A stretch of DNA of 47,694 nt, taken from the IMG/VR virus record IMGVR_UViG_3300022538_000189. One strand, 5' to 3'. This document shows, piece by piece, positions 14,831 through 45,571 of this stretch (its first letter is position 1; each line of letters starts with the position of its first letter). The notes beneath the pieces are model-generated. The model made no database searches, was not told the DNA's origin, and saw only the letters and a program-made list of their open reading frames with translations. Source of the DNA: a virus. The position numbers and the translations under genes are program-made.

Positions 14831-15676
14831 TTACGATGTCGCTGGTGCTGTACTTGCAAGTAAATAAAAGTCAACATCATCAATTTTTATTTTAAGTGAA
14901 CGACATATTGTTTTATGTATCGCAGTTGACCCTATATCAGCACTAACAAAACCACCTGTAATATTTTTAACAAAGTTAAATAAGTAAGCAAAGTGGGTGT
15001 CTGTTCCACCACCGCCTTGAACTTTGAATACATTATCCACAATTGCTGAACTACTTGAATTATTCTGAGTTATCAAAACCATACTAACTTCACCAGTAGT
15101 TGGATTTGTCGCCAACTGATTATCTACCCATAAAGAACAGGCGTTTTCTACCTCAGTCCATGTGCCACCCGCTAATATTTGTGACATTACTCCTGCAATA
15201 GTTACAGCAGTATTTTTTATTGTTCCTGACACTCTTGCTCTACCATGTACTCCAACAACGAATTGGTCGTTATCTTGAGTTGTTTGAACTCCTGTTAGTT
15301 TAACGTCTCCTCTTATACAATATATACTACCAAAACTTGCTCCTGCTCCTGTAACTGCACCTGTTATCCACACAGGTACATTATATCCATCACCACTAAG
15401 GTCAGAATAAACCTTTATGGCACTTTGTCCAGTTACCGCAGTTGTAAGAGCTGTAACAGTTCCTATTCCGATAGGAAGAGTTACTGTGCCTTCTATCTTT
15501 ATACCATTAGTACAACTACCGATTTGAATAGCATCTCCACTACCACTTGGTGGTGCAACATATATTCCTTTAATTCTCATTCCACCAAATCTATCAGTCG
15601 TGTCATAAGCTAAGGCTGCGTAAATTTCGCCTCTACTAAAGCCTTCGCCAAGACTTTTTTTAATTGTCTGAGTCAT
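14831..15676 (-). CDS. Hypothetical capsid-associated protein (G/T/V-rich beta structure); possibly a decoration protein or head fibre.
   Basis: 281-aa ORF immediately downstream of the major capsid gene, with SD aaaggag. There is no recognisable enzymatic motif. Confidence 0.35.
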   Translation of the reverse strand: MTQTIKKSLGEGFSRGEIYAALAYDTTDRFGGMRIKGIYVAPPSGSGDAIQIGSCTNGIKIEGTVTLPIGIGTVTALTTAVTGQSAIKVYSDLSGDGYNVPVWITGAVTGAGASFGSIYCIRGDVKLTGVQTTQDNDQFVVGVHGRARVSGTIKNTAVTIAGVMSQILAGGTWTEVENACSLWVDNQLATNPTTGEVSMVLITQNNSSSSAIVDNVFKVQGGGGTDTHFAYLFNFVKNITGGFVSADIGSTAIHKTICRSLKIKIDDVDFYLLASTAPATS

Positions 15677-26466: not shown

Positions 26467-26640
26467 TATTTCCTCTTTATTATTCTTAATGTTTCCCACA
26501 TTGCCTCAAACTTTTCGCCACGCTGGAGTAGGGCGATAATATTATCTATCCTTTTACTATTTTTATTTTAATTCCTTCACTCGGAGTGCCACTTAATCAT
26601 CAAATATTCTATCCGATTTCCTCATTCTCGTTTCATATAT

Positions 26641-26669
26641 AGTATAGCACATTTCGTTCCATTTGTCAA
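26641..26669 (-). promoter_or_regulatory. Sigma-70/SigA-type promoter (family member P1) driving the leftward block.
   Basis: Minus-strand sequence TTGACAAATGGAACGAAATGTGCTATACT: -35 TTGACA, a 17-nt spacer with TGTGn extended -10, and -10 TATACT. Confidence 0.7.
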
Positions 26670-26853
26670 GTCTTTTTTATAATTATCTTCATTTTTTTTT
26701 AATTATTTTCACAAAAACTTTTAATGCAGGAGAATAAATCTATCCACCCCATGGACGAGGGACATTTCGCCCTTATTTTACAACGGTTTCAAAAATCGTA
26801 AATTCTTATATTTTTATATATATTTGCCAAATTTTTTTATTCTTTTACATTAG

Positions 26854-27088
26854 GAGTGAATGCGACCAGTCAAGGGATTCCTTAAAAAAAAAGTAAAGGA
26901 GAGGTACCCATACCCTTCTCGTGATAGATAAGAGTATAATGTGTTTGATATTAAATTAAAATTAGGAGACACTCCGTGCTCCTTCTTTTAATTTAAATTA
27001 AGATACTGTATATTAAAAGGATAACAAAAGCTTTAAGGTGTCCACTTCGTGGACAAAGATTCCGTTCGCTCCCTCTGGTCGCTCACTC
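26854..27088. repeat. Long-range interrupted inverted repeat (19 paired positions) enclosing 192 nt.
   Basis: Left arm GAGTGA-at-GCGACCAG-tca-AGGGA (26854-26877). Right arm TCCCT-CTGGTCGC-TCACTC (27070-27088). The arms are GC-rich islands in an AT-rich spacer. Confidence 0.7.
26951..26996. repeat. 46-nt near-perfect palindromic hairpin (bidirectional terminator or cruciform candidate).
   Basis: TTAAATTAAAA-tt-AGGAG-a-CAC-tcc-GTG-CTCCT-tc-TTTTAATTTAA. Confidence 0.7.
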
Positions 27089-27512
27089 AAACCCCCGCCC
27101 ACAAATGAAGGATTGTTCATATATGCAAATATAAGGATATATAGGGATAATGCTCACTTAATGTAATTAGAACTATTTAAAATGGATCTTAAATTACTAT
27201 CCTAATACTAATCTTAATGCAGGGAAATTTAATATTAAATTAAGGCAGGAATAAGATAATAAGATAGTGCTACCCCTTATTTAGTGATATTTTGAATAAA
27301 TCCCGAATAGCGGAATAGAGGAATAAAGGATATATAAGACCCTGCTAACGCAGGGAATAATAAAAGAAAATTAGTTAAATCAATTAGTATTACTTATGTA
27401 ATGTATCTATCCTATACTAAGATGATACGGATATAATAACTAATATCAAATAGCAACCGCCCTCGACCCTTTTAAATAAGTGAAAATAAATGAAAATAAA
27501 TCGCTAAAACCC

Positions 27513-27542
27513 TTGACAAGTATATTAAATCTATGATAAAAT
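27513..27542 (+). promoter_or_regulatory. Rightward promoter of the plus-strand block.
   Basis: TTGACA at 27513-27518, an 18-nt spacer ending in TGa, and -10 TAAAAT at 27537-27542. Confidence 0.55.
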
Positions 27543-27713
27543 AAGAGAAAAAAGAGCAACCAACGAAACCATAAAAACGCCAAAGCCCACTGGAACTTGA
27601 AAAGTGAAAAATTAAAGGAGATAGTAAGGCACAGCGACCTATTATCTCTGACCGACCCAATGAAAAGCAAAGGAGATATAAAGCGAATAAGAATAATACT
27701 TATAGCTTTATAG

Positions 27714-27803
27714 ACCCATCTATTAAAGGGATAGAATGGAAATTCCCTTACTTGAACTGATAACGCCATAGATGGGTTTATTAAGGTTATACTTATACCT
27801 TAA
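27714..27803 (+). promoter_or_regulatory. Structured 5' leader upstream of the lipoprotein gene.
   Basis: Nested stems ACCCATCTA/TAGATGGGT (27714-22 / 27769-77) and AAGGGA/TCCCTT. A second hairpin TTAAGGT-9 nt-ACCTTAA (27781-27803) lies 8 nt before the SD. Confidence 0.5.
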
Positions 27804-27827
27804 ATAAAAAGAAAGGAGAATAAAACA

Positions 27828-28337
27828 ATGAAGAAGATACTGTTTTTTTTGATTCTGTCTATATTCTTTCTAAGTGGATGTATTCATATTTTCGTTCTGC
27901 CTGATGATGCCGAATTTCTTGCCTTAATTGAAGAATTAAATACTCCGAGAAAAGCTTGTCAATATATGTTAGATAATTTTGTTTATAGACCTAATATTTT
28001 AAAACCTATAAATCCATATCAGTTATATTTATGCAAAATGGGAGATTGCGACGACTTCTCTAATTGGGGAGTATTTTTTGCCAATTATCATAATTACGAA
28101 ACTTATCAGATAAAAATATATTACAAAAATACCCCTTATTCCCATTCTCTTGCAGTTTACAAAGAAAATGGAAGATATAACTTTTCAAATAACCAATATT
28201 ATCTTTTCATACAGGCAGAAAATTTTGAGTATATTGTTATATATGATAGTTATTTCTTAATGGAAAGAGAATGGATAAAGTATATCGTTTATGATTACGG
28301 AATGAATGTTATTGAAATAGGATATAATAAAATCTAA
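27828..28337 (+). CDS. Lipoprotein with a transglutaminase-like cysteine protease motif.
   Basis: 169 aa with a signal peptide and lipobox FFLSGC. Contains KMGDCDDFSNWG (Cys), YSHSLAVY (His) and downstream N/D candidates. Paralogous motif to the 46923-47414 protein. Confidence 0.55.
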   Translation: MKKILFFLILSIFFLSGCIHIFVLPDDAEFLALIEELNTPRKACQYMLDNFVYRPNILKPINPYQLYLCKMGDCDDFSNWGVFFANYHNYETYQIKIYYKNTPYSHSLAVYKENGRYNFSNNQYYLFIQAENFEYIVIYDSYFLMEREWIKYIVYDYGMNVIEIGYNKI

Positions 28338-28360
28338 TAAAAAGAAAGGAGATTTTATAA

Positions 28361-28663
28361 ATGGAAATTAAATGCAAAAACTGCGGAAAGAAACAGGAAC
28401 TCACTAACGAATATATCTTAGGCAATAGGGGAGGGAAACCGCCGAAATTCATAACCTTTCAGGAGAGCAAGAACAAGTTTTATTATTATTGTAAAAAATG
28501 TTATATGGTAAAATGTAAGGAAGTAGAAAGAATACAGTTTTTACCTATAACGAGAATAATCCGTAATATCTTCAAGCACACCGAAAATAGTAATAAAACA
28601 AACTCTGAAAAAGCAACGCAAAGAATTATTAAATGGTTAGATGAAAAAGGATATTTTGATTGA
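28361..28663 (+). CDS. Zinc-ribbon protein.
   Basis: 100 aa with CKNCG…CKKC and SD aaaggag. Confidence 0.5.
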   Translation: MEIKCKNCGKKQELTNEYILGNRGGKPPKFITFQESKNKFYYYCKKCYMVKCKEVERIQFLPITRIIRNIFKHTENSNKTNSEKATQRIIKWLDEKGYFD

Positions 28664-28690
28664 AACTAACAATGAAAGGAGACCAACTAA

Positions 28691-28903
28691 ATGCCAATAA
28701 AAATTTATTTATTTAAGTTTTTAACTGCAAAAATTAGAGCAATTAAGAAAGTAGAAAAAGCGAGAAGGGAATATCATTCCTTTATATCAGTCAGAAGCCT
28801 AAAGGATATCTTTAGTAATTACAATTTAATGACAACCTATCTAAGACTTGAAAACAACTTGATAGAAACAAAGAACAAACTTAATTTATTAAATAAATCC
28901 TAA
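28691..28903 (+). CDS. Hypothetical small helical protein.
   Basis: 70 aa with SD aaaggag. Confidence 0.45.
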   Translation: MPIKIYLFKFLTAKIRAIKKVEKARREYHSFISVRSLKDIFSNYNLMTTYLRLENNLIETKNKLNLLNKS

Positions 28904-28997
28904 TAGGTTTATAGACCTTTTTAATTTTAGCAACATTAAAGAGGTTTATTAAGCCCATTAAATTGATACGAAATAAATTGAAAGGAGTATAAAAGTA

Positions 28998-29072
28998 ATG
29001 GAAAAATGTATTGTGTTTATAGTATGCCTAACAATTATAACTTACTCAATATACTATATTAAAAAAAATTAA
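28998..29072 (+). CDS. 24-aa hydrophobic micropeptide candidate.
   Basis: Sequence MEKCIVFIVCLTIITYSIYYIKKN. SD aaaggag lies 9 nt upstream. It is below the ORF-track size cutoff. Confidence 0.35.
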   Translation: MEKCIVFIVCLTIITYSIYYIKKN

Positions 29073-29091
29073 AAAGGAGTGATTGAAATAA

Positions 29092-29373
29092 ATGTCAGTA
29101 GTATTATTTCAGAATATCGAAGTAACTAAGACCCTGACAAATAGCCCACAGAGAACCAAAAAGACTACAACCTTTAAATGGAAATTCACTTTCAGAAATT
29201 TATCTTTTTCTGGAACACTAAGCAACGAAAATATTAATTTCACTCGAAAAGAACAAATAGACTTATTTCAGGAAATGATTAATACAATGAAATGTATCGA
29301 AGAAGGGAGAATAAAAGGATTAAAATCCTTAGAAAAAGAGGAAGGAAGGAGATTTTTAGAATATAATGGATAA
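29092..29373 (+). CDS. Hypothetical protein.
   Basis: 93 aa with SD aaaggagtga. Confidence 0.45.
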   Translation: MSVVLFQNIEVTKTLTNSPQRTKKTTTFKWKFTFRNLSFSGTLSNENINFTRKEQIDLFQEMINTMKCIEEGRIKGLKSLEKEEGRRFLEYNG

Positions 29374-29821
29374 TAAGATAGTATTGATAAAATCAAAAAA
29401 ACAAAAGCAAATTGATTTTTTGAAGAAACTTGTAAAAGAACCAAGAGACCGAGCAAAAGACAGCTTAATGAAACAAACTGACCGAGCCATTGAAGCAATA
29501 GTAGAATTTAAAGCCGACCTTGTAACAAACGGAATAAATACCCATATATACGATTTTGATTATAACGACACAGCGGATATATTCAAGCCTCTGAAAGAGA
29601 TTATTGGATATATGGATTTTATAATTGAAACCGAAGTAAATCGCATTGTTGAAATATCCCTTGAAAGTACACTTGACGAAATCAACTATATGGAAGAAAA
29701 AGCCTTACACGAAAGAGCAAAGAAGTTATTACAAAAAAGGAAAGAAAAAGCCGACAAAGAACACGACAAGACAGTAACAAAACTTAGGAATAAAAACGGA
29801 ACTATCTTTTTCAATTATTAA
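29366..29821 (+). CDS. Hypothetical helical protein.
   Basis: 151 aa; overlaps the upstream gene by 8 nt. Confidence 0.45.
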   Translation: MDNKIVLIKSKKQKQIDFLKKLVKEPRDRAKDSLMKQTDRAIEAIVEFKADLVTNGINTHIYDFDYNDTADIFKPLKEIIGYMDFIIETEVNRIVEISLESTLDEINYMEEKALHERAKKLLQKRKEKADKEHDKTVTKLRNKNGTIFFNY

Positions 29822-29840
29822 AAAGGAAGGAGTAAAAAAA

Positions 29841-30017
29841 ATGAAATATTTTTTTAATAGTTTGAGGAAAATGGATTTTGAGAAAATCAAAATATCTCAA
29901 GCCCTAAGACTTTTCAAATTTAACTATCTTAGGGGAAGAATAGAAAGAAAGGAGTATAAATATTTAGTGAAACTAATCTATAAAAATAAAAAAATGAAAA
30001 GGAGATTCGCACATTGA
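29841..30017 (+). CDS. 58-aa basic protein, translationally coupled to the amidoligase gene.
   Basis: ATG at 29841 with SD aaggaaggag. Its TGA (30015-30017) overlaps the TTG start of the next gene (TTGA). It is below the ORF-track size cutoff. Confidence 0.45.
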   Translation: MKYFFNSLRKMDFEKIKISQALRLFKFNYLRGRIERKEYKYLVKLIYKNKKMKRRFAH

Positions 30018-31606
30018 ACACAGAAAAAAAAGTTAATAAATTAACCTGTGAAGGTTGCAAGAAGAAAATTGATGAAAGATACGCCCTTGAAAGCGGAGAT
30101 TGTTATTATTGCCTGGATTGTTGGCTGGGTAAGTACGAAAACCACCTACTATTTCACTATGATTATAAACCGAAGCCAATATTTTGTAAAATGTCATTCG
30201 AGAAGAACCCTCTTTTCTTAGGAATTGAGCTTGAAGTAGAAGCAAACGACGACACCGATGAATATTATGATGATGAAGACGACGACAGCAACAGCGACGG
30301 TTATTTACAGGATTATGCTTATGGTATTATGAAATCGTACCCCTGTTATATCAAATACGATGGAAGCCTCAATAATCATGGAATGGAGATTGTAACCCAC
30401 CCGCAATCGGTTAAATATCATAAGAGGATTTTTAAGTGGAAGCAACTGCTTGAAACATTAAAAGCTGACGGATTCACCTCGTACAAAAATAATAGATGCG
30501 GACTACATATCCACATATCAAAAAAATGGTTTAAGCCAGAAGATTTTTTGAAATTTAACATATTTTTTGATAAAAATTTCTCTGTAATGAAACGCTTTTC
30601 AAAAAGGACAAAGACAAACTATTGTAATAAAGTAAATGCAGAAGAAACAAGAAGAATATCCAAAGATAAAAAGAAAGCACAACTTGAGGAGTGGTACGAT
30701 CATTATAGATGTGTATATTTCGGAAATCCTACCACGATAGAACTCCGTATATTCAGAGGAACTCTTGATATAGACCGCTTTAATGCCACCCTTGATATAA
30801 CGGAAGCCCTTGCCTATTTTGTTAAAAGTTATTCACTTGTATTTTTTATCAAGGCAACTAAAAAACAATTATGGTTTTCATTCTTAGCTTTTATGAAACA
30901 ATCAAAGAAATACCATAAGTTATTAAAATACTTAGAAAAAAAGACCCTTCTATATTGCCCTCTTAACAATATACCAAGACAAGGAACAATACTTGAAAGT
31001 AATGTAGAGAGAAAAGACCTTCTAACTTTAATGGGAAATTCCAATATTAAAGAATTTTTGAAAGGGAAAGAATTAAATAAATTGGAGTATTATTTTGATG
31101 ATTTTGAAGATTATATAATTAACTATCAAAATGATGTCTATTTCCTAAGAGATAATTGCTATCTACCGATTAATTTTGAGAAAATAGTAATGTATAACAA
31201 ACATTACAACGCACAAAAGCGAAAAATGATTTTAGATTTTTTTATTGAGTACGGTTTTACTTTTGAGATTCAAAGGGAAAATATAAATCTAAATATCAGA
31301 AATAGAAAAGAATTCGCCACAGCTTTAGGAGTAGATATAGACAAGATTAGGAAAGAAAGGGAAAAGAAAAACCAACTTGACGAAAAGCTAATGAAAAAAG
31401 CCAACAAGAGAGCAGGGAGAACCAGGAATAATAATATTTACGGTACACTAGAATTTACAAGAACAGGTAGGACTAATAGTGTGATAAGCATAGACACCAA
31501 GAATCGAGATTGGGAAACAGAGAAAATTCACCGCCTGATAACAAAAGCCCTTGCAAAAAGAGAGAATAAACATTATATCTTTATAATCAAAAATAAAAAT
31601 AATTAA
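30014..31606 (+). CDS. Amidoligase (Amidoligase_2 family, glutamine-synthetase-like fold) with an N-terminal zinc ribbon.
   Basis: 530 aa with a TTG start (SD GGAGA 8 nt upstream). CEGC…CYYCLDC at the N-terminus, then LGIELEVEA, an acidic insert, YIKYDGSLNNHGMEIVTHP, CGLHIHISK and TIELRIFRGT. Confidence 0.65.
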   Translation: MNTEKKVNKLTCEGCKKKIDERYALESGDCYYCLDCWLGKYENHLLFHYDYKPKPIFCKMSFEKNPLFLGIELEVEANDDTDEYYDDEDDDSNSDGYLQDYAYGIMKSYPCYIKYDGSLNNHGMEIVTHPQSVKYHKRIFKWKQLLETLKADGFTSYKNNRCGLHIHISKKWFKPEDFLKFNIFFDKNFSVMKRFSKRTKTNYCNKVNAEETRRISKDKKKAQLEEWYDHYRCVYFGNPTTIELRIFRGTLDIDRFNATLDITEALAYFVKSYSLVFFIKATKKQLWFSFLAFMKQSKKYHKLLKYLEKKTLLYCPLNNIPRQGTILESNVERKDLLTLMGNSNIKEFLKGKELNKLEYYFDDFEDYIINYQNDVYFLRDNCYLPINFEKIVMYNKHYNAQKRKMILDFFIEYGFTFEIQRENINLNIRNRKEFATALGVDIDKIRKEREKKNQLDEKLMKKANKRAGRTRNNNIYGTLEFTRTGRTNSVISIDTKNRDWETEKIHRLITKALAKRENKHYIFIIKNKNN

Positions 31607-31622
31607 AAGGAGAAAAAAATAT

Positions 31623-32435
31623 ATGTGTATAATTGTTTTTAAACCCAAAGGAGTAAAACCACCAAAGGAAAAAATTTTAAGGAACTGCTTTTCAAACAAT
31701 GCTGACGGTATGGGAATAGCAATTCAAAGGGATAATAAAATAATAATTAATAAATTTATGAAAATAGAGCCTTTTATAAATCATATCAGACATAGCGTAA
31801 GAAAAGAAGATAATGTTATTTATCACTTTAGGATTGCTACGCATGGAAGGGTTAGCATTGAAAACGCCCACCCTTTTATTATCACAAAAGACTGTAAAGA
31901 AATGAACGAAAGCGAGAGTATAACAGAAAAGAATATCTTAGCCCATAACGGAATAATAATTTCTTTAGTTGACGATCAAAAAACAAACGATAGTAAGGTT
32001 TTAGCCCACATTTTAGCCGACAGGGAGATTAACAGAAACCTTTTTAAATCGAAAGGAATAAGAAAGTTAATTAAAACTATCTTAGCAACCGACAAGCTAA
32101 TAATAATGAATAAATCAGGTAACTTTTTTATGATAGGAGATTTTGAAAGGGAAAAAGGAATATACTATTCAAACCTAACCTATAAATATAATACTGAATA
32201 CTTACAAAGATACTATGATGATTATTATTATATCCCCTGGAATAGCAAAGACAAAAAATCTAACCTGACAATCGAAGAAGCAAAAAGGCAGAAATTATTA
32301 TCCGAAACCGATAAAATTAGGGTTAGTGGTGCTTGTTGTGCATATTGTAACACCAGGAAAGAAGTATATTATTTCTGGGATATCGAAGAAAATCTTTGTG
32401 AAAACTGTTTCCATTCAATCTATGAAATAGAATAA
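31623..32435 (+). CDS. Class-II (Ntn, Cys2) glutamine amidotransferase with a C-terminal zinc ribbon.
   Basis: 270 aa. N-terminal MCIIVF with Cys directly after the Met. Also ADGMGIA, HFRIATHG, ENAHPF, LAHNGII and NDS. C-terminal CCAYC…CENC. Confidence 0.65.
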   Translation: MCIIVFKPKGVKPPKEKILRNCFSNNADGMGIAIQRDNKIIINKFMKIEPFINHIRHSVRKEDNVIYHFRIATHGRVSIENAHPFIITKDCKEMNESESITEKNILAHNGIIISLVDDQKTNDSKVLAHILADREINRNLFKSKGIRKLIKTILATDKLIIMNKSGNFFMIGDFEREKGIYYSNLTYKYNTEYLQRYYDDYYYIPWNSKDKKSNLTIEEAKRQKLLSETDKIRVSGACCAYCNTRKEVYYFWDIEENLCENCFHSIYEIE

Positions 32436-32450
32436 GGAATAGGAAGAAAA

Positions 32451-32487
32451 ATACCCTGCAATTTTGATATTGCAGGGTATTTTTTTT
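32451..32487 (+). terminator. Rho-independent terminator ending the amidoligase operon.
   Basis: ATACCCTGCAAT-6 nt-ATTGCAGGGTAT (12-bp stem) followed by TTTTTTT. Confidence 0.85.
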
Positions 32488-32620
32488 GTGTCAGGAAAAA
32501 AGACCTCGAAAAACCCCCTAAATTCTGCTTTTAAACCCTCTTTACATACAAACACAAGCAAAAATAACAAAACCCCACCAGCAACGCATACGACCCCTTA
32601 AATCCGATTTGTTAATAAAA

Positions 32621-32731
32621 TGTGTATAACTTTTGGAAAATGTGTATAACTGAAAAAAAATGTTGAAAAAGTGTTAATAAATCGAAAAAAATGTGGAAAA
32701 CCTGTGGAAAACTCTTGACTTTTGTGGATAA
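32621..32731. promoter_or_regulatory. Cluster of five same-orientation DnaA-box-like 9-mers.
   Basis: TGTGTATAA at 32621 and 32641; TGTGGAAAA at 32692 and 32703; TGTGGATAA at 32723. Their complements are TTATACACA, TTTTCCACA and TTATCCACA. Weaker TGTTGAAAA and TGTTAATAA lie between them. Confidence 0.6.
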
Positions 32732-32743
32732 CTATGTTATAAT
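32715..32743 (+). promoter_or_regulatory. Consensus promoter whose spacer contains a perfect DnaA box.
   Basis: TTGACT (32715-20), 17-nt spacer tttGTGGATAActatgt, TATAAT (32738-43). Confidence 0.65.
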
Positions 32744-32864
32744 ATTTATAGAATTTTGAACAGAAGAAAAATGTAAGAAAATCGAACATAAAAACCAGAC
32801 AGGAAAAAAGACCTAAGATGAAAATAAAATAAAAACTTAAATGAAGGCGAAAGTCAAAAAAAGA

Positions 32865-32893
32865 CTTGACAAATAAGAAAAAGTGTGATACAA
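32865..32893 (+). promoter_or_regulatory. Promoter of the conserved family (P6), rightward.
   Basis: TTGACAAATAAGAAAAAGTGTGATACAAT with a 17-nt spacer and TGTGn extended -10. Confidence 0.65.
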
Positions 32894-32921
32894 TAAAAAC
32901 AAAAAGGGGGTGATAAATAAT

Positions 32922-33095
32922 ATGAAAGTAACAAAGATGGTTCAAATCCGTTTTATTGGTTACGAAAAAATTGTAGATTTTGCAATTGATTGTTTAAGAG
33001 CTCAATTAGAGGATAATATAAAGTGCAGAAGGCAGGAAGAGAAGGACATCAATACTATTGAAGCTCAAATAATAAGAGTAAGTGGGGGGTGGTAA
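32922..33095 (+). CDS. Hypothetical small protein.
   Basis: I chose the ATG at 32922 (SD AAGGGGGTGA). 57 aa. Confidence 0.45.
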   Translation: MKVTKMVQIRFIGYEKIVDFAIDCLRAQLEDNIKCRRQEEKDINTIEAQIIRVSGGW

Positions 33096-33096
33096 G

Positions 33097-33249
33097 ATGC
33101 CAAAATACATAGTTTACTTTAGTAGAGAGCAATATGGATATAAAGAATTTGAAGCAAAAAACAATGAACACACAGAAGAAATTATAGAAGATATGGAACT
33201 CAATGGAAAATTCCCAGATATTTTCGATAGTGTAAAAGATGAAGGATGA
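33097..33249 (+). CDS. 50-aa acidic small protein; absent from the ORF track.
   Basis: ATG at 33097 preceded by GGGGGGTGGTAAG. Sequence MPKYIVYFSREQYGYKEFEAKNNEHTEEIIEDMELNGKFPDIFDSVKDEG. Confidence 0.45.
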   Translation: MPKYIVYFSREQYGYKEFEAKNNEHTEEIIEDMELNGKFPDIFDSVKDEG

Positions 33250-33287
33250 ATCTTCGTAGATTATGACAGAAATGAGGAATTGCTTAA

Positions 33288-33569
33288 ATGAAAGAACTAA
33301 ATGATTTTATAAGAGACCGTAGAAATGGAAGAATATATTGGGTTGTAGACATTGACCATGAAAATAAAATATATACTCTGGAATATATAGTAAAAGTAGG
33401 ATTCGGACTCGAAGAAGATGAAAAAGCAACGATGGGATTTAGTTTTGATGAAGTAAAAGATAATTTTGACGAGGAAGCAAGTCACTACAATAAGAGGGGT
33501 GGTATAAATGACAGAAAGAAAAAGACTCAAAGCTGTTCGCAGAAGAAAAGCAATGGTAAAGAGTTTTAA
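33288..33569 (+). CDS. Hypothetical small protein.
   Basis: 93 aa with SD gaggaa. The 3' 62 nt overlap the next ORF. Confidence 0.45.
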   Translation: MKELNDFIRDRRNGRIYWVVDIDHENKIYTLEYIVKVGFGLEEDEKATMGFSFDEVKDNFDEEASHYNKRGGINDRKKKTQSCSQKKSNGKEF

Positions 33570-33690
33570 TTTTGAAACAAAAACCTTAGCGAGAGCTATA
33601 CCTATTTATCAAGAGGACACTCAGACAGTAAAAAATGCTAAGGTAAGACATGATTACCATAATAAAGCTATGAGAAAGAAAAGAGGGTGA
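33508..33690 (+). CDS. Hypothetical small basic protein.
   Basis: 60 aa with SD AGAGGGGTGGTATAA directly upstream. The protein is R/K-rich. Confidence 0.4.
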   Translation: MTERKRLKAVRRRKAMVKSFNFETKTLARAIPIYQEDTQTVKNAKVRHDYHNKAMRKKRG

Positions 33691-33697
33691 TAGAAAC

Positions 33698-33895
33698 ATG
33701 GTAATATATTTAATATGCAATAAGAATAGACCAATCTCAATGATAAAATCAGGTGAGGAGCCTGAGGATTTTATTAAAAGAAAAAATAGAGGGAAAAAGC
33801 CTAAGGAATTTCTCAAAATGGGCAACGAAAAAACGGTTGTAATTTTAACTCGAAAAGACATTGAAGATATTATTAGATTAGGTGAAAGGGGGTGA
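33698..33895 (+). CDS. Hypothetical small protein.
   Basis: 65 aa with SD AGAGGGTGATAGAAAC. Confidence 0.45.
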   Translation: MVIYLICNKNRPISMIKSGEEPEDFIKRKNRGKKPKEFLKMGNEKTVVILTRKDIEDIIRLGERG

Positions 33896-33899
33896 TATA

Positions 33900-34079
33900 A
33901 TGTATGATTATATGTATCAATACAAAGGAAATATAGAACGGATAATAACCAATATTGGACAATACAAAGCTAAGACATATTGCCGTAAGTTATTCGACAA
34001 TGGACACATCAACTCTAAGGAGTGGAATGTGTTAGCGTCGTATATTAATAAATTAGAAGAATTGAAAAAAAGGGGGTGA
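33900..34079 (+). CDS. Hypothetical small protein.
   Basis: I chose the ATG at 33900 (SD AAAGGGGGTGATATA). 59 aa. Confidence 0.45.
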   Translation: MYDYMYQYKGNIERIITNIGQYKAKTYCRKLFDNGHINSKEWNVLASYINKLEELKKRG

Positions 34080-34085
34080 TAAAAA

Positions 34086-35030
34086 TTGAAATTATCAAAT
34101 GTACATAATATACCACAAGCTATGGTGAATGCTCTGAGCGATTTCCAGGAACCAAAAAAAGATATCCTGAGGGTATCTGAGTTAATAGGAGCTCCAAAGC
34201 AGAAAAAATTACGAATAAAATATTGGGCTTTCATAGAAGAAGATGTCAGCGAAAGATTATGGAGTTTATTAGGACAATCAGTTCATTATATCTTAGAAAA
34301 AGGAGCTCCTGAGAACGCATTTAAAGAAGAACGATTGATGTACAAAATTGATGGAGTAGTTATTTCAGGACAATCCGATTTATGGTGTAATGAAGAAATA
34401 GGAGACTATAAGACTACAAGTGTTTTTTCATTCCTGTTGGGTATAAAACCTGATTGGGTTGCTCAACTTAATGTATATAAATGGCTATGGGAAAAGAACG
34501 GATTTAAGACTAAGTCTTTGAAAATACACGCTATATTAAGAGATTGGATTCGTTCCAAAGCGATGTTAGAACCTAAATATCCTCAAATACCTTTCATTAC
34601 CGTTGATATACCAATGTGGACAATGGAAGAAACAGAGAAATATATCAGAAGAAGAATTGCACTTCATAAATTACCGATAGCTCCACTTTGTACAGAAGAA
34701 GAAAAATGGACACGACCAACTACTTACGCAATTACAGAAAAGGGAGCAAAAAGAGCAAGAAGGGTATGCACTACTTTAGCAGAAGCAAAAATGTGGATGA
34801 AAGATAATAGCAAATGGTATATCGTAGCCGATAAGGAAAGAAAGACAAACAGAGAACCCTTTGCAATTATGAAACACGGATTAGTGAAGCCTAAAGCATC
34901 CTTCAAAACATTAGAAGAAGCAGAACTATATATAAGAGATAATGAAACCTTAGAAATAGATATACGAAAAGGTAAAAATGTTAGATGTGAGGGATATTGT
35001 AATGTAGCCAAATGGTGTAATAAGAAATGA
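34086..35030 (+). CDS. PD-(D/E)XK nuclease of the Cas4/RecB-like type with a C-terminal Cys cluster.
   Basis: 314 aa with a TTG start after AAAGGGGGTGATAAAAA. Motifs GQSVHYILE, GQSDLW, IGDYKTTS (D-x-K) and QLNVYKW (QxxxY). Cysteines at PLC… and CEGYCNVAKWC. Confidence 0.6.
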   Translation: MKLSNVHNIPQAMVNALSDFQEPKKDILRVSELIGAPKQKKLRIKYWAFIEEDVSERLWSLLGQSVHYILEKGAPENAFKEERLMYKIDGVVISGQSDLWCNEEIGDYKTTSVFSFLLGIKPDWVAQLNVYKWLWEKNGFKTKSLKIHAILRDWIRSKAMLEPKYPQIPFITVDIPMWTMEETEKYIRRRIALHKLPIAPLCTEEEKWTRPTTYAITEKGAKRARRVCTTLAEAKMWMKDNSKWYIVADKERKTNREPFAIMKHGLVKPKASFKTLEEAELYIRDNETLEIDIRKGKNVRCEGYCNVAKWCNKK

Positions 35031-35034
35031 AGGA

Positions 35035-35068
35035 AAAAAGAAAGGGTGGCTCAAATGCCACCCTCTTC
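35035..35068. terminator. Bidirectional terminator at the convergence of the plus and minus blocks.
   Basis: AGGGTGGC-6 nt-GCCACCCT. It is flanked by an A-run on the left (a U-tract for the minus strand) and CTTCTTAT on the right. Confidence 0.75.
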
Positions 35069-36392: not shown

Positions 36393-37564
36393 CCTTTTAT
36401 CACCCCTATTGGTATTAATCGTTCTTTTATTTCACAAAGATCTTTCTGTAATTCCATTACTTTATCTATGTTCTTGTAAGCAGAAGGAGCTTCATCTAAC
36501 TGACTGACTGTTCTCACGCTATGGATTACTCCCTTTAATTCGAGCTTATGCTGTTCTTCTGCTAAGTCTAATTCTGCTTTAGCTTTAGACCTTGACATTT
36601 TTCTCCCTGCACCATGAGAACAGGAAGTAAAACTTTCAGGATTACCAAGCCCTTTAGTTATGTAACTAAAACTCCCCTGACTGCCAGGAATTATCCCTAT
36701 CTCTCCAAGTCTCGCACTTATAGCACCCTTTCTATGCACCCATACATTCTTACCAAAATGGTTTTCCTGTCTTACGTAGTTATGTATGACATCTATATCT
36801 TCCTCTATAAATGCACTAAGCAAGTGCTTATCCAAGATATTTTTAATCTTATCCATCATAACCCTTCTATTGGCTTCTGCAAACTCCACACAATAATTCA
36901 TTTCTTTTAAGTAATCTTGCCCCTCTTTACTATCAACTGGTAAGAAAGCTAAGTCATAACTCGGAGCCACCTGCGTATGCCATTTAGCATTTAAGTCTTT
37001 GGCTAATTGATTATAATGTGACGCAACTTTATACCCCAAGTTCCTGCTTCCAGAGTGTAGCATTATCCACAAGCTATTATCCTCACCCACCTGAAACTCA
37101 ATGAAATGATTGCCACCACCAAGAGTTCCTAATTGTTGTGCGGCACTTTGCAATTCATCAGGTATGACATCCTTTGTCAGTAAGTTCCAATGCAATGGCG
37201 GTAATGCGTCAGAATTTGCTTCTTCATTATGTTTGAAACCGACAGGAATTACCTCTCTGATTTCACTCATTAACTCCTTAACTTTTTCTTTCTTTAATTG
37301 CACTACATTTAATTTGATTGCCCTCATTCCGCAACCTATGTCAACGCCTACTGCATTAGGTATGATATAAGCATGAGTAGCTAACACCGTACCAATAGGC
37401 ATACCATAGCCCTGATGACAGTCAGGAAGTAGCACTATTTGTCTATAAGAAAAAAACAACTTAGATAAGTTCTCTGCTTGTAACATTGCTCCGTTCTCTA
37501 TATAATCTAACCACATCTTAATTGGTATTCTATTATTTCTCTTATCAAATTTTACTCTTTCCAT
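36389..37564 (-). CDS. rtcB: RtcB RNA 3'-phosphate/2',3'-cyclic-phosphate ligase.
   Basis: 391 aa from the ATG at 37564 (TAATG coupling). Motifs VDIGCGM, GGGNHFIE, HSGSRNLG, PGSQGSFSY and SCSHGAGR. Confidence 0.85.
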   Translation of the reverse strand: MERVKFDKRNNRIPIKMWLDYIENGAMLQAENLSKLFFSYRQIVLLPDCHQGYGMPIGTVLATHAYIIPNAVGVDIGCGMRAIKLNVVQLKKEKVKELMSEIREVIPVGFKHNEEANSDALPPLHWNLLTKDVIPDELQSAAQQLGTLGGGNHFIEFQVGEDNSLWIMLHSGSRNLGYKVASHYNQLAKDLNAKWHTQVAPSYDLAFLPVDSKEGQDYLKEMNYCVEFAEANRRVMMDKIKNILDKHLLSAFIEEDIDVIHNYVRQENHFGKNVWVHRKGAISARLGEIGIIPGSQGSFSYITKGLGNPESFTSCSHGAGRKMSRSKAKAELDLAEEQHKLELKGVIHSVRTVSQLDEAPSAYKNIDKVMELQKDLCEIKERLIPIGVIKG

Positions 37565-39378: not shown

Positions 39379-40341
39379 TTAACACCCCCATAACATCTTT
39401 TCAACCTCAAACATTATAAATTTTTCCCAATACTTTCTATCTACTTTATCAGGATAGTCGCTTGCGACTGCTAAGTCTTTTACTTCTCCGATAAGAGTTT
39501 CCAGTAAAGGAGCAACTTCGCTCTTGTAATCTATTTTTCCTGCTTTGATATCTTTCAAGTATTCTGCTTGTGCCAATGGAAATTTTATTTCTCCATCTTT
39601 ATAGAGTTCTATCAACTGCATTGAGGCTCTTATAGCATGAGATACTGCCTTCCAATCTATTCCTTCATTCTTTTCTGCTAATCTTGCTCTTGCACCATAA
39701 GCATTATAAAACGTTACCATTATATCAAAAAGATATCGCAAGGTAGCAGTCTCCTGTATTTTTTTACCACATACTTGATAAATCCTAAGTCTGTCCTTTC
39801 CTATCTCGTATTTATGGATATGTTCTCTTTGTGGTAGTTTATCCCAAACCTGCTTTAATCTTGTCTTGTTCATATCATTACCCTTCTGTGTATCAAAATC
39901 ATTAATGAAATCCATAACTTTTCCAGCAGAGGCTAACCTACTCCCCTTAATTCCATATTTAGAAGCTTGTCTCATTGCATATCCTACAAAAGCATGCATG
40001 TCTTTTGTTATGAAAAGATGTTTATTGAGACATATTGCTTTCCAAGTATCTGATGTTTCTAAAATCATATCATCAGGAGCGTGAAGCATATCAATAGCAA
40101 CGGTTTGCCCCTGACAAGCCAATTCCAAAAAGTAATGTAACGAATAGACTTCTGTATCTGTATCTCCCGAAGTATTTTTGCCTACTCCAACCTTTGTTTT
40201 TTCTGAATAACATTTTGGTATTCTCCCTAAAAATATTTGTTCTTTAGTGGGCATAAATATACCCTTATAATCAGTATCAGAATCTTTCGTATCTGTTCCG
40301 TATAAATGACTTCCGAATTTCATTTTTACTATTGTATTCAT
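39379..40341 (-). CDS. Pol-beta-superfamily nucleotidyltransferase of the RlaP (RNA-repair-associated) type.
   Basis: 320 aa. N-terminal KFGSHLYGTDTKDSDTDYKGIFMP. TAATG-coupled to dnaB. Confidence 0.55.
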   Translation of the reverse strand: MNTIVKMKFGSHLYGTDTKDSDTDYKGIFMPTKEQIFLGRIPKCYSEKTKVGVGKNTSGDTDTEVYSLHYFLELACQGQTVAIDMLHAPDDMILETSDTWKAICLNKHLFITKDMHAFVGYAMRQASKYGIKGSRLASAGKVMDFINDFDTQKGNDMNKTRLKQVWDKLPQREHIHKYEIGKDRLRIYQVCGKKIQETATLRYLFDIMVTFYNAYGARARLAEKNEGIDWKAVSHAIRASMQLIELYKDGEIKFPLAQAEYLKDIKAGKIDYKSEVAPLLETLIGEVKDLAVASDYPDKVDRKYWEKFIMFEVEKMLWGC

Positions 40342-41627
40342 TACTTACCACCGCCTTGATATAAGTCAGGTTGATATTGAGTAAAAGAAATGTGTTCCAT
40401 TCGTGCATATTCAGGAAATATATTAACCCCTATCCTTCCTATCGTACCGTCTCTATTCTTACTGATCAATATCTTCATTTCTTCAGGTTCTTCTCCGCCA
40501 AACCTTTCAGGATTAATCATTTGTAGTCTCTCTTTCCAATACAATAACAACACAATATTGCTAACTTCCTCTATCCTGCCTGATTGTCTTAAATCACTCA
40601 ATCTCGGTTCTCTAATCTCTTCGTTGTTACGATTGAACTGTGATAAACAGACAGTTCCAAGTCCATTTCGTAATGTCATTCGTTGTAATTCGATAATATT
40701 ATTTGACGTAGAGGTATAATCCTGTTCACCTAAATTCTGCAAGTAATCGAATACTAAGAAGTCGGGTTTATACTTTCTAACATATTTATTTGCGTCAGTC
40801 ATGCTAAAGACTTTCTTGATGTTCAAATTCCATTCCCCTGAAATTTGTTTTGCTCGTCTTTGTAATCTATTCTGTTCTTCATCGGTAAGATTATTTTTTC
40901 TAATCCTCATAATAGGAATTAACTCAAGATTACCCAATAATCTCCTACTTACTTCTTGCGGTGTCATTTCGGTAGATAAAAATAAAACCCCCTTACCACA
41001 CTTACATTGATTAATAGCCATTTGCATACCTGCAACTGACTTACATTGTGAAGTCCAACCGCCTATAGTTAAGAGTTCTCCTCTATCTAATCCGCCTATA
41101 TATTTATTTAAACTTCTTATCCCGAAAGTAAACTCTGTTCCTTTGGTAACTTCCATTAAAGTTTTTTCAAGCAACATTTGTAATGTTTCTTCTTTAATCT
41201 CTATATTATTGAGAGTTTCTAATTCTGTCAAAGCATCATCAATAGTCATTTGTCCGTCATTTACTGCTGTCAAAAGTCCATGCTGTGCTCTTTTGATAGA
41301 TGCTTTTTGAATTAAAGCGACATAATGCTCTATATTTTTAGGTGTAGGAACTGAATTCACTAAATTGGTAAGATACGTAACACCACCTATTTTTTCTAAC
41401 TTGCCTACCTCATTCAATCCTGATGTAATAGTTACTAAATCTACATTGACACCTGTTTGTAGCATATCTACCATCAATTTATATATTGTCTTATGCTCAC
41501 CTTTGTAAAAGTCATTTGGTGACAATGTCTCAACTGTAATGAAGAAAGCGTCCTCGTCTAATAAACAACTTCCAAGACAAGCCTGTTCTGCATTTATTTC
41601 TTGTGGTAAATTCTTTGTTAAGTTCAA
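40341..41627 (-). CDS. dnaB: DnaB-family replicative helicase.
   Basis: 428 aa with a TTG start (SD AGGGGGTG). Motifs NAEQACLGSCLLD, FDYLQNL and LRQSGRIEEVSNIVLLLY. The P-loop reads GGWTSQCKS, not GxxxxGK[ST]. Confidence 0.75.
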   Translation of the reverse strand: MNLTKNLPQEINAEQACLGSCLLDEDAFFITVETLSPNDFYKGEHKTIYKLMVDMLQTGVNVDLVTITSGLNEVGKLEKIGGVTYLTNLVNSVPTPKNIEHYVALIQKASIKRAQHGLLTAVNDGQMTIDDALTELETLNNIEIKEETLQMLLEKTLMEVTKGTEFTFGIRSLNKYIGGLDRGELLTIGGWTSQCKSVAGMQMAINQCKCGKGVLFLSTEMTPQEVSRRLLGNLELIPIMRIRKNNLTDEEQNRLQRRAKQISGEWNLNIKKVFSMTDANKYVRKYKPDFLVFDYLQNLGEQDYTSTSNNIIELQRMTLRNGLGTVCLSQFNRNNEEIREPRLSDLRQSGRIEEVSNIVLLLYWKERLQMINPERFGGEEPEEMKILISKNRDGTIGRIGVNIFPEYARMEHISFTQYQPDLYQGGGK

Positions 41628-41729: not shown

Positions 41730-42431
41730 TTAATTCAAATCTTTCAATACTCCACTTGTTACTGTACCACACTTTTGCCTATTTGTCAAGTATTTATATT
41801 CTTCTAAATAGTTTCCATATTTAGTCTTGTTAAAAACAGTAGATGGTCGGAGATACATTTCAAATTCTGTTCCCATTCTCTTTTTACAAATGAACTTAAT
41901 TACTTCGCAAATCTCCTCGATAGGAGAGCCATCTTTAACTCTTGCTTTTATGTTAGACAAAACAGTTCTGTTATCGAACTTGAAATTCCGCCCTGTCAAG
42001 TTATTCAAAACTTCAATAGGGGATCTGTATTTAGCTATCAAGTCAACAAGAGTATTAATGTTATTATCAGTATTTGGTATATTAGTATTTAATAGTACTT
42101 CATTTTCAACGTGCCTGTTTTGTACATCTTGCTTCTGATTCTGTGGGTCTTGTATCAAGAAATATTCATTACCTGAAATTTTATTGTCTTTTCTCAATAC
42201 AACACAATGGATATAACCCTTTTTTGTAAGTTCTCTTATTCCATTTCTTATTGACTTCTCTCCATTTGTAAAATGTGTAAGCAGTTCGGTTATATGTAAA
42301 TCCCAATTATCGGGCAAGGTCAAAAGGTATGCAAAGATACCCTTTGCCTTAGCCGATAGTGATGTGTCTCTTATCCATCTATTACTCATTACTGTAAAGT
42401 CTCTTGCGACTTTACTTCGTATTATCCTCAC
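41730..42431 (-). CDS. Replication initiator/organiser (DnaD-like N-terminal wHTH plus a conserved phage C-terminal domain).
   Basis: 233 aa with a GTG start (SD GAGGGGGAA). FTVMSNRWIRDTSLSAKAKGIFAYLLTLPDNW… and a C-terminal part …NLTGRNFKFDN…IKARVKDG…YLRPSTVF. Confidence 0.65.
   Translation of the reverse strand: MRIIRSKVARDFTVMSNRWIRDTSLSAKAKGIFAYLLTLPDNWDLHITELLTHFTNGEKSIRNGIRELTKKGYIHCVVLRKDNKISGNEYFLIQDPQNQKQDVQNRHVENEVLLNTNIPNTDNNINTLVDLIAKYRSPIEVLNNLTGRNFKFDNRTVLSNIKARVKDGSPIEEICEVIKFICKKRMGTEFEMYLRPSTVFNKTKYGNYLEEYKYLTNRQKCGTVTSGVLKDLN
41761..41789 (-). promoter_or_regulatory. Promoter family member P5, inside the 3' end of the initiator gene and upstream of dnaB.
   Basis: Minus-strand sequence TTGACAAATAGGCAAAAGTGTGGTACAGT. 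Confidence 0.5.
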
Positions 42432-44366: not shown

Positions 44367-44939
44367 TTAAAATTCAAATGTAAGTCCTGCTATAAGTCCA
44401 GAATAACTCGGATTTAGAGGAACATAATTAACTCCAGCAAATAAGCCAAATCTATTCTTTTTAAGCAATTCATTTATTATGTCCTGTTGCACTTTCATTA
44501 AAGATTGTAAATTTTCTATCACTTCTAACAAAGCTTGGTTGTCTTGTTCTGCTTCGTTATAAAGCTTTTGATATCCTATTGCAATATCCGCCATATCCTT
44601 ATAAGCAACAAGCAAATCAGAATAGTTGTCTGGAATTTTAAGGTTTTCTACAGTTGGGGATGTAACACCAATCACTCCAACAGAAAAAACAATGCAGAGA
44701 ACTATAAAGATGTTAAAATGTTTCTTTAATCTATCGGCTAATTTACCTGCCTTTTTCTTCCTATTCTCTATTCTCTTTTTCACTTCCTTAACCACAGCTT
44801 CTTGTTTCTTGGCTTCTGTCTTTACTTCATCAATCTTCTTTTTTAATTCGAAATTATTTCTACGAGTGAAGAAAACATAGGCAAATACAGAAAAAACAAT
44901 AGCTAAGGCTACCTTAATCCAATTCCACATTTTTTTCAT
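44367..44939 (-). CDS. Two-TM coiled-coil envelope protein in the lysis cassette (spanin or lysis-accessory candidate).
   Basis: 190 aa from the ATG at 44939 (SD GGGAAGTGAT). Two hydrophobic helices flank a K/E-rich segment. The C-terminus …GLIAGLTFEF ends in an aromatic residue. Confidence 0.4.
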   Translation of the reverse strand: MKKMWNWIKVALAIVFSVFAYVFFTRRNNFELKKKIDEVKTEAKKQEAVVKEVKKRIENRKKKAGKLADRLKKHFNIFIVLCIVFSVGVIGVTSPTVENLKIPDNYSDLLVAYKDMADIAIGYQKLYNEAEQDNQALLEVIENLQSLMKVQQDIINELLKKNRFGLFAGVNYVPLNPSYSGLIAGLTFEF

Positions 44940-44943
44940 ATTA

Positions 44944-45090
44944 TCACTTCCCAAATAGACTTTTAATGAGTTTCCATATTGCGTTCGGAACAATCCACAT
45001 TATATCAATCCACCAACTAAAAAAGTCGCTAAGATGAAATATAACATAAATTGCAGACATTATTATTAAAACATAAAATACAATATTCAT
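44944..45090 (-). CDS. 48-aa hydrophobic protein; holin candidate.
   Basis: ATG at 45090 (SD aaaggag). Sequence MNIVFYVLIIMSAIYVIFHLSDFFSWWIDIMWIVPNAIWKLIKSLFGK. Lies between the endolysin and the two-TM protein. Confidence 0.45.
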   Translation of the reverse strand: MNIVFYVLIIMSAIYVIFHLSDFFSWWIDIMWIVPNAIWKLIKSLFGK

Positions 45091-45127: not shown

Positions 45128-45571
45128 TTATCTATCGTTTAAAAATCTATATAGTCTTGCTACCCTCTTAGTCCATCCTCTCAAATGCCATTTCTCCGTT
45201 CTGCATTGTGTCATAAAAGATATTCTTGCCATTAGATAATACTTCCAATTGCCAAGACTCTCTTTCAATATCTTTTTAGCTCTACTTACACCTGAATTGA
45301 TTGCACAATCAAACACTACCATTGCCATTTTAAACTCCATCTTCTCACACCCTGCTTTATCCCAATAGTTTTGTTTGTAAATTCTTTTAGCTTCTGCAAA
45401 TGCAAGTTCAGATTTACCTTCTTCTATCCACTTCTTCATCTTTGCTACATTATGGGGATAGCTCTTTGAGCTTATCCCATAAATAGTATACTTTCCTGTA
45501 TCGTTAGGGTCATTAGAAACCTTACCCTCTGCATTGAAAGTAAATCTTGCCACCTCATCAAAATTACTCAT
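45128..45571 (-). CDS. Endolysin, glycoside hydrolase family 108-like N-acetylmuramidase.
   Basis: 147 aa. FTFNAEGKVSNDPNDTGKYTIYGIS matches the GH108 pattern EGG.vndp.D.GG.T.yGI. Confidence 0.6.
   Translation of the reverse strand: MSNFDEVARFTFNAEGKVSNDPNDTGKYTIYGISSKSYPHNVAKMKKWIEEGKSELAFAEAKRIYKQNYWDKAGCEKMEFKMAMVVFDCAINSGVSRAKKILKESLGNWKYYLMARISFMTQCRTEKWHLRGWTKRVARLYRFLNDR

Follow-up and report, generated by a model that had tools for sequence, protein, structure and literature searches.

A conserved array of eight DnaA-type boxes overlapping a predicted promoter in the genome of a lytic-type phage

Results

An eight-box array between two operons

The virus record IMGVR_UViG_3300022538_000189 of the IMG/VR database, a stretch of 47,694 nucleotides that we refer to as the window, holds a phage genome of ~47.6 kb that was assembled as a circle (the first 86 nt recur at the end), the stored record being 99% complete. 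It has a GC (guanine plus cytosine) content of 34% and nine tRNA genes, and its genes lie mainly on the minus strand, with a single plus-strand block at 27.8–35.3 kb that comprises two operons. These are separated by a 435-bp gap, which accommodates the subject of this study: an array of DnaA-type boxes together with a predicted promoter, P1 (Table 1). Upstream of the gap lie the amidoligase and class-II glutamine amidotransferase (GATase) genes and the intrinsic terminator that forms the left edge of the control region; downstream lie tiny ORFan genes and a Cas4-like nuclease gene.

The array comprises eight co-oriented decamers of the form TGTKNAWAAM, spanning 32610–32732 and starting at the left-hand coordinates of the boxes in Table 1, with spacings of 11/20/20/11/20/11/20 bp, i.e. 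one or two helical turns. Two classes of site are intermixed, namely consensus DnaA boxes (class A) and TTATYAACA (class B). When compared with the DnaA-box consensus (TTATCCACA / TT(A/T)TNCACA), one box was perfect and four had one mismatch, all of them TGTGNAWAA (boxes 2, 3, 6, 7 and 8, read on the minus strand as TTATNCACA), while the three class-B sites depart from the classical consensus at position 6 only (C to A). P1 matches 11 of the 12 consensus positions of a sigma-70-type promoter and has an extended -10 TG at 32735–32736. A preliminary description of this stretch had listed five boxes (32621, 32641, 32692, 32703 and 32723) in a single orientation with 20/11/20-bp phasing within pairs, and had placed the perfect one between -35 TTGACT (32715) and -10 TATAAT (32738). 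On re-reading, all of these coordinates, the phasing and orientation, and the position within the promoter (a 17-bp spacer) were right; the five-box array is real, but it was drawn too small, as the three class-B sites at 32610, 32661 and 32672 fill its gaps and bring the number to eight.

Table 1 Features of the control region and of related genes in the window; positions are those of the whole stretch.
Feature	Position	Strand	Remark
Amidoligase gene	30014-31606	+	towards end of first operon
Class-II glutamine amidotransferase (GATase) gene	31623-32435	+	last gene of first operon
Intrinsic terminator	32444..32487	+	strong; closes amidoligase/GATase operon; 19-nt inverted repeat then T run
Box 1, TGTTAATAA (= TTATTAACA)	32610..32618	-	class B
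Box 2, TGTGTATAA (= TTATACACA)	32621..32629	-	class A, 1 mismatch
Box 3, TGTGTATAA (= TTATACACA)	32641..32649	-	
Box 4, TGTTGAAAA (= TTTTCAACA)	32661..32669	-	class B
Box 5, TGTTAATAA (= TTATTAACA)	32672..32680	-	class B
Box 6, TGTGGAAAA (= TTTTCCACA)	32692..32700	-	
Box 7, TGTGGAAAA (= TTTTCCACA)	32703..32711	-	adjoins -35 on upstream side
Box 8, TGTGGATAA (= perfect TTATCCACA)	32723..32731	-	inside P1 spacer
Predicted promoter P1, TTGACT-17-TGtTATAAT	32715..32743	+	-35 32715-32720, -10 32738-32743
Near-invariant A/T-rich 30-mer, ATGAAAATAAAATAAAAACTTAAATGAAGG	32818..32847	+	between P1 and P2
Predicted promoter P2, TTGACA-17-TACAAT with TG	32866..32894	+	box-free; 150 bp downstream of P1
Operon served by P1/P2	32922..35305	+	six or seven tiny ORFan genes, nuclease, 92-amino-acid gene
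PD-(D/E)XK (Cas4-like) exonuclease gene	34086-35030	+	within P1/P2 operon
Bidirectional terminator	35043-35064		end of P1/P2 operon
DnaB helicase gene	40341-41627	-	8-9 kb from array
'Replication initiation' protein gene, DnaD-like, HTH_36 + Phg_2220_C	41730-42431	-	~9 kb from array

The density of boxes exceeds what the base composition would predict, a comparison that the preliminary description had proposed as a check. In none of 600 Markov-simulated genomes (order-1 and order-3) did any 120-bp stretch reach four boxes on one strand, a single mismatch per box being allowed, against five observed. Likewise, 5000 dinucleotide-preserving shuffles of the 435-bp A-rich intergenic region produced at most four same-strand relaxed boxes (TTWTNMACA), against eight observed, so that a chance origin of the array is excluded by both the whole-genome and the local shuffles. 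Outside the array region 14 relaxed boxes remain, with ~20 expected genome-wide and hence no excess, and no second cluster of boxes was found elsewhere in the 47.6-kb window genome. Three further perfect TTATCCACA 9-mers occur within coding genes, at 15033 and 15364 (both in a 281-amino-acid gene at 14831–15676) and at 37063 (with 37077; the former inside RtcB); by our own calculation from base composition, the genome-wide count of perfect TTATCCACA is 4 versus ~0.6 expected.

Conservation of the array around P1

Megablast of the region against GenBank phages returned no match and no close relative, and scans of IMG/VR for related loci found no relatives with GATase or DnaB as queries and, with the nuclease, one distant, array-less genome only (L001). 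Nuclease homologues at 68–77% identity led instead to metagenome contigs, several of them from samples whose accessions appear in a data paper on South China Sea cold seeps (PMC9357000). Five further lineages with arrays were recovered in this way (contigs L002, L004, L006, L007/L008 and L130; nuclease identity 70–77%). All five are syntenic with the window, with amidoligase, GATase, terminator, ~500 bp of non-coding DNA, tiny genes and nuclease in this order, and the terminator at 32444..32487 has a counterpart at the equivalent position in all relatives. A scan of metagenomes for the box/-35 junction TGTGGAAAANNCTTGACTT gave mostly chance matches, the sole family member among the matches listed being L189, which belongs to the L007 lineage.

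The arrangement of boxes around P1 is shared by all six lineages (the window and the five others). P1 is kept as TTGACT-17-TGnTATA(A/C)T in six of six, a box ends 2–4 bp before the -35 in six of six, and a box lies in the 17-bp spacer in six of six, with the -35 hexamer consequently placed between boxes on both sides in every lineage. An upstream run of 2–5 boxes, oriented as in the window, was present in each of the five further lineages, and the first decamer pair (32610, 32621) is unchanged in five lineages. At the same time, the spacer box itself is variable: it is a forward TTATTAACA in L002 and L004, a forward TTATACACA in L007 and L130, a reverse TGTGGATAA in the window and a reverse TGTTAATGA in L006. 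As both its sequence and its orientation differ among lineages, a box has been kept in the spacer through turnover.

Four lineages extend the array downstream of P1, where 2–4 forward TTATYAACA boxes are followed by 2–3 reverse boxes at a spacing of 11–12 bp (perfect TTATCCACA in L002, L004 and L007, TTTTCCACA in L130), so that the complete arrangement reads <<<< [-35 > -10] >>>> <<<. In the window there is no such downstream sub-array, but it carries the longest upstream run of the six. The number of boxes per lineage varies from 7 to 11; of 53 boxes in total, 21 are TTATTAACA, 10 TTATCCACA, 8 TTTTCCACA, 7 TTATCAACA and 4 TTATACACA, and same-orientation neighbours are spaced by 11 bp (n = 18), 12 bp (n = 2), 20 bp (n = 6) or 22 bp (n = 4). 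P2 is missing in L007 only. No array was found in relatives with ~47–49% nuclease identity (L001, L133 and L134; L001 was searched over its whole 48-kb genome), which makes the array a trait of a single clade. The existence of the array is thus confirmed, and it is both conserved and more extensive than first described.

In one lineage, L004, seven further boxes form a second array (>>> ... >> <<; L004:2143-2296) in a 1.3-kb gene-free divergent region, adjoining a conserved hairpin and 300–500 bp from the nearest promoters. It begins directly after a segment that is conserved in the window (GGTGTCCACTTCGTGGAC ... TTCCGTTCGCT ... CTCACTC, window ~27037–27110), and the equivalent region of the window (26467–27827) contains no boxes.

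The same boxes occur beside dnaA in bacteria

To place the non-classical class-B sites, we scanned one genome per prokaryotic species for their tandem doublet GTTATYAACANGTTATYAACA and obtained at least 120 loci from very diverse phyla. Among the matches listed, at least 27 of 120 loci had an open reading frame (ORF) with a DnaA signature (at least two of the three motifs G.GKTHL, NIRELEG and DHTTV) in the same 8-kb block, mostly less than 1 kb from the doublet, compared with ~0.3% expected for a single-copy gene; the figure of 27 is a lower bound because the 8-kb blocks are not centred on the doublet match. The dnaA-linked doublets sit in clusters of 7–14 boxes that mix TTATCCACA, TTATCAACA and TTATTAACA at 11–12 bp, and these bacterial arrays match those of the phages in both box variants and spacing (11–12 / 21–23 bp). 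As TTATYAACA doublets adjoin dnaA in bacteria, both classes can be regarded as chromosomal-origin-type DnaA boxes. PhoB/OmpR-type direct repeats, considered on account of the 11-bp period, were dropped once the bacterial doublets proved to be dnaA-linked. In two bacteria the doublet was found repeatedly, at no fewer than six separate places in the Kiritimatiellae metagenome-assembled genome RGIG7486 (L034, L037, L041, L045, L060 and L061) and at no fewer than four in a Ca. Spyradenecus genome (L035, L048, L083 and L111), a distribution more suggestive of a dispersed repeat or of several DnaA-box clusters than of one origin.

Published box collections point in the same direction. The DnaA-box consensus of Thermoanaerobacter tengcongensis is TTATCNACA, its boxes 9–12 overlap the dnaA promoter, and its neighbouring boxes 3 bp apart are bound cooperatively (PMC1888806); T5-like phages carry 'DnaA*' variants TTATCAACA and TTATTAACA beside consensus boxes (bioRxiv 10.1101/866236). 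Since position 6 is reported to be conserved in high-affinity DnaA boxes (PMC5124646), the class-B sites are probably weak and would be filled cooperatively. Taken together, the array is very probably made of DnaA sites, as judged from sequence comparison, and the ligand common to many bacterial phyla, T5-like phages and the present clade is most simply host DnaA, an assignment that we consider likely. The premise of the preliminary description, that these are DnaA-type boxes, is thereby strongly supported, with both classes and the 11–12-bp spacing recurring beside dnaA in bacteria.

Other elements and gene context

Between P1 and P2 lies a 30-mer that is almost unchanged in five lineages whose proteins are 70–77% identical and that is degraded in L130; it is neither a conserved ORF nor RNA-structured. 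The core of this block, TGAAAATAAA, recurs as two copies a short way upstream of the promoter at 27513, which points rightward, and as two minus-strand copies in L004 (1265/1295). An RNA element in the P1–P2 leader was considered and rejected (no Rfam match above noise; fold z-score -0.26). An exact 15-nt direct repeat, CAGGAAAAAAGACCT, at 32492–32506 and 32800–32814 (308 bp apart), brackets the array and P1, and AGG-A(n)-CCT motifs resembling it occur upstream in L006 and L007; the repeat may be a recombination scar tied to the rearranged array of the window.

Seven genes downstream of P1/P2 have no recognisable function. In L131/L132:1364-2296 (68% nuclease identity) a T4-type RNA ligase (PF09414) lies downstream of the nuclease, where the window carries an RtcB module further on; judging by gene content, the RNA-repair cargo of the clade is exchangeable. 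Host signals are mixed. A GH108 lysozyme/endolysin and a weak Rz-like spanin match (45128–45571 and 44367–44993) suggest a Gram-negative-type envelope, the initiator (41730–42431) is closest to initiators of Firmicutes phages, and the terminase is closest to terminases of uncultured freshwater phages. Promoters and Shine-Dalgarno sites in the window are of a strong type (TTGACA/TATAAT and GGGGGTG). Matches in a BLAST comparison of the phage control regions with the 120 bacterial loci listed were confined to the box runs and therefore gave no clue to the host.

Discussion

A putative operator for host DnaA

DnaA is near-universal in bacteria and signals the readiness of the cell to replicate. 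We tentatively read the array as an operator for host DnaA that is built around P1 and controls it, a reading to which we give a little less than even probability and which we place first because the -35 is sandwiched by boxes and the spacer box survives turnover in all six lineages. DnaA would bind the high-affinity spacer box (TTATCCACA) and the boxes flanking the -35, and DnaA-ATP would then oligomerise cooperatively along the weaker 11/20-bp-phased sites, as it does on chromosomal arrays. The resulting complex would occlude the -35 and the spacer, following the logic of autoregulated dnaA promoters, and would keep P1 closed as long as free DnaA-ATP is abundant. Opening of P1 would follow the depletion, inactivation or titration of DnaA, for example by a rising number of phage genomes with 8–11 boxes each, and would provide a timed, extra expression of the tiny-gene/exonuclease operon besides that from the unregulated P2. 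Activation of P1 by DnaA, instead of repression, is also possible on this anatomy.

Several observations weigh against such an operator. The box-free P2 can drive these genes independently of DnaA, and because the six lineages are related to one another, part of their common architecture is inherited. Class-B sites deviate from the consensus at position 6, which is reported to be conserved in boxes of high affinity (PMC5124646), and in L006 none of the boxes is perfect. The second array of L004 lies away from promoters, so that not every array of the clade can be a promoter operator, and relatives at ~47–49% nuclease identity manage without an array. DnaA control of the promoter, which the preliminary description had put forward, appears to fit the comparative anatomy of the six lineages best, with the rivals weighed below still standing beside it.

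Alternative roles of the array

The array could instead be, or be part of, the phage origin, with host DnaA recruiting the DnaD-like protein and the DnaB helicase and with transcription from P1 acting as an activator in the manner of pR at ori-lambda. Such a density of boxes, in two classes and facing both ways, otherwise characterises chromosomal origins, and L004 has its second array away from promoters. The phage does encode a helicase and a DnaD-like initiator (40341–41627 and 41730–42431), as the preliminary description had said; its further remark that DNA polymerase and primase are missing holds for a family-A polymerase and a Toprim_2 primase domain, the only ones checked for, neither of which was found among the window proteins. 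There is no iteron array within or beside the initiator gene that could serve as an origin in its place, and plus-strand GC skew rises from ~0.10 to ~0.26 at 32–33 kb, inside one co-oriented gene block (27000–35000). This step, however, falls on the boundary between the operons, and the genome as a whole shows no replicative asymmetry; GC skew was discarded as an origin marker, as transcription direction dominates the signal. The basal unwinding system of bacteria consists of tandem boxes followed, after a spacer of at most 16 bp, by at least three NAN trios (preferably 3'-GAT-5') 3' of the TTATCCACA strand (PMC8287927). By these rules no such module is present in the window or L007, where no run of at least three NAN trios follows the outer boxes within 16 bp on the 3' side; direct reading of the minus strand left of box 1, AATCGGATTTAAGGGG, showed no three-NAN run in any register. 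The boxes face a C-rich segment, away from the A/T-rich side, and nearest-neighbour duplex stability shows no outstanding minimum, the sole low point being the -10 itself (top 0.1% at 30 bp, top 2% at 100 bp), with many equal or lower sites elsewhere. Moreover, the paired arrays of the relatives are convergent (>>>> <<<), whereas the sampled bacterial dnaA-linked arrays are divergent, and the array is 9 kb from the initiator gene. This distance, with no repeats within or beside that gene, also sets the array apart from iteron-type origins such as those of lambda, theta plasmids and SPP1-like phages, whose direct repeats are bound by the element's own initiator and are located inside or beside its gene. 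For the array to act as an origin, which is possible, another opening mechanism would be required; the preliminary description had offered it as an alternative, and the missing DnaA-trios, the lack of an outstanding unwinding element and the 9 kb to the initiator gene weaken it to the point where we regard it as unlikely.

The boxes might also act as a DnaA sink, the third possibility of the preliminary description, or as a tether, with no role in cis. Multiplying phage genomes would then soak up host DnaA and halt host initiation, or attach phage DNA to membrane-bound DnaA, as proposed for the injection-stop (iss) region of T5. In T5-like phages, eight boxes belonging to these two classes occupy non-coding DNA distinct from the replication origin (bioRxiv 10.1101/866236), the additional array of L004 is not at a promoter, and array content varies by lineage (7–11 boxes, with the downstream array lost in the window). 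A pure sink, however, needs no fixed position, and yet all six lineages have their array centred on this one promoter, even after turnover of the spacer box; furthermore, the hallmarks of T5, box pairs in long inverted repeats within the terminal repeat, are not seen in the window, where no long inverted repeats surround the boxes. We therefore hold this role to be improbable. Equally, the decamers could be operators or iterons for a phage protein that resembles DnaA in specificity, candidates being the clade-specific N-terminal helix-turn-helix of the initiator and the tiny ORFan proteins. The commonest phage site is class B (TTATTAACA, 21 of 53 boxes) and not the consensus, the lack of a perfect box in L006 is in keeping with this, and the genes downstream of P1/P2, being without recognisable function, leave room for such a protein. 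The N-terminal domain of the initiator is 72% identical between the window and L004, of the array-bearing clade, and 28% in the array-less L133, a co-occurrence of array and initiator type that is confounded by phylogeny. Against a phage ligand stands the recurrence of exactly this mix of variants and spacing next to dnaA across many bacterial phyla. T5-like phages share the mix although their replication proteins are unrelated, and a common host ligand is therefore the simpler account. Perfect TTATCCACA boxes occur in tandem in three lineages (three in L002 and L007, two in L004), and the phage genome encodes neither a DnaA domain IV (PF08299) nor an OmpR/PhoB-type winged helix-turn-helix domain (PF00486). 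A phage-encoded ligand thus seems quite unlikely; a small share of the probability falls to none of these readings.

Elements of these readings may also be combined, with the array acting both as a timer that responds to copy number and as an auxiliary of the origin. Host DnaA-ATP would keep P1 closed on the genome that enters the cell. Titration of DnaA, as phage genomes multiply, would stop host initiation and at the same time de-repress P1, supplying the nuclease operon for recombination-driven replication, and in the relatives the same DnaA complex would help to load the DnaD-like protein and the helicase. We assign a low probability to this scheme; if it were true, lytic phages in general would use titration of the host initiator as a developmental clock.

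Comparison with known systems

Dependence of a virulent phage on a regulator of its host has a precedent in Bacillus phage phi29, in which Spo0A sites on early promoters and near the origins make development depend on host state. The present case differs from it in the regulator (DnaA rather than Spo0A), in site architecture and in phage family. A lytic phage promoter under an oriC-like DnaA array would, if our reading of it as an operator is true, read or drain the replication signal of the host.

For DnaA itself, the published precedents that we found are its action at lambda pR and a proposal for T5. Host DnaA acts at lambda pR/ori-lambda according to the work that PMC8203912 and PMC3017604 cite (Szalewska-Palasz 1998; Glinkowska 2003). 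As described there, host-initiator boxes near a phage promoter couple expression and replication to host DnaA, which is what we predict here; in lambda, however, a few weak boxes lie downstream of pR and DnaA stimulates, whereas here 8–11 phased boxes extend over the -35 and the spacer, which suggests occlusion. The iss boxes of T5 (Davison, bioRxiv 10.1101/866236) are similar in belonging to lytic phages, in numbering about eight within non-coding DNA, and in their make-up, with about half consensus and half 'DnaA*' boxes, mostly TTATCAACA and TTATTAACA, whose arrangement is kept while coding sequences diverge. Unlike the window boxes, which are direct repeats 2 or 11 bp apart, they form pairs 3 bp apart in long inverted repeats of the terminal repeat, off any promoter, and the role proposed for them is the arrest of DNA injection, whereas those of the window make up a phased direct array on a promoter.

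The closest resemblance is to the clusters at the dnaA promoter and oriC flank of T. tengcongensis (PMC1888806), which likewise contain many TTATCCACA- and TTATCAACA-type 9-mers with gaps of 2–3 bp (11–12 bp start to start) in co-oriented runs on a sigma-70-type promoter. In contrast to that system, the present array belongs to a lytic-type phage and precedes ORFan genes and a nuclease, not dnaA; in contrast to bacterial dnaA/oriC arrays more generally, the window has no DnaA-trios or defined unwinding element, and the arrays of its phage relatives are convergent. While the case alone does not show a new mechanism, it adds to these precedents a six-lineage comparison in which the spacer box has turned over and entire sub-arrays have been gained and lost, a bacterial control by which the 'odd' TTATYAACA boxes prove to be genuine dnaA-linked boxes, and a directly testable fragment of ~170 bp that holds the array together with P1.

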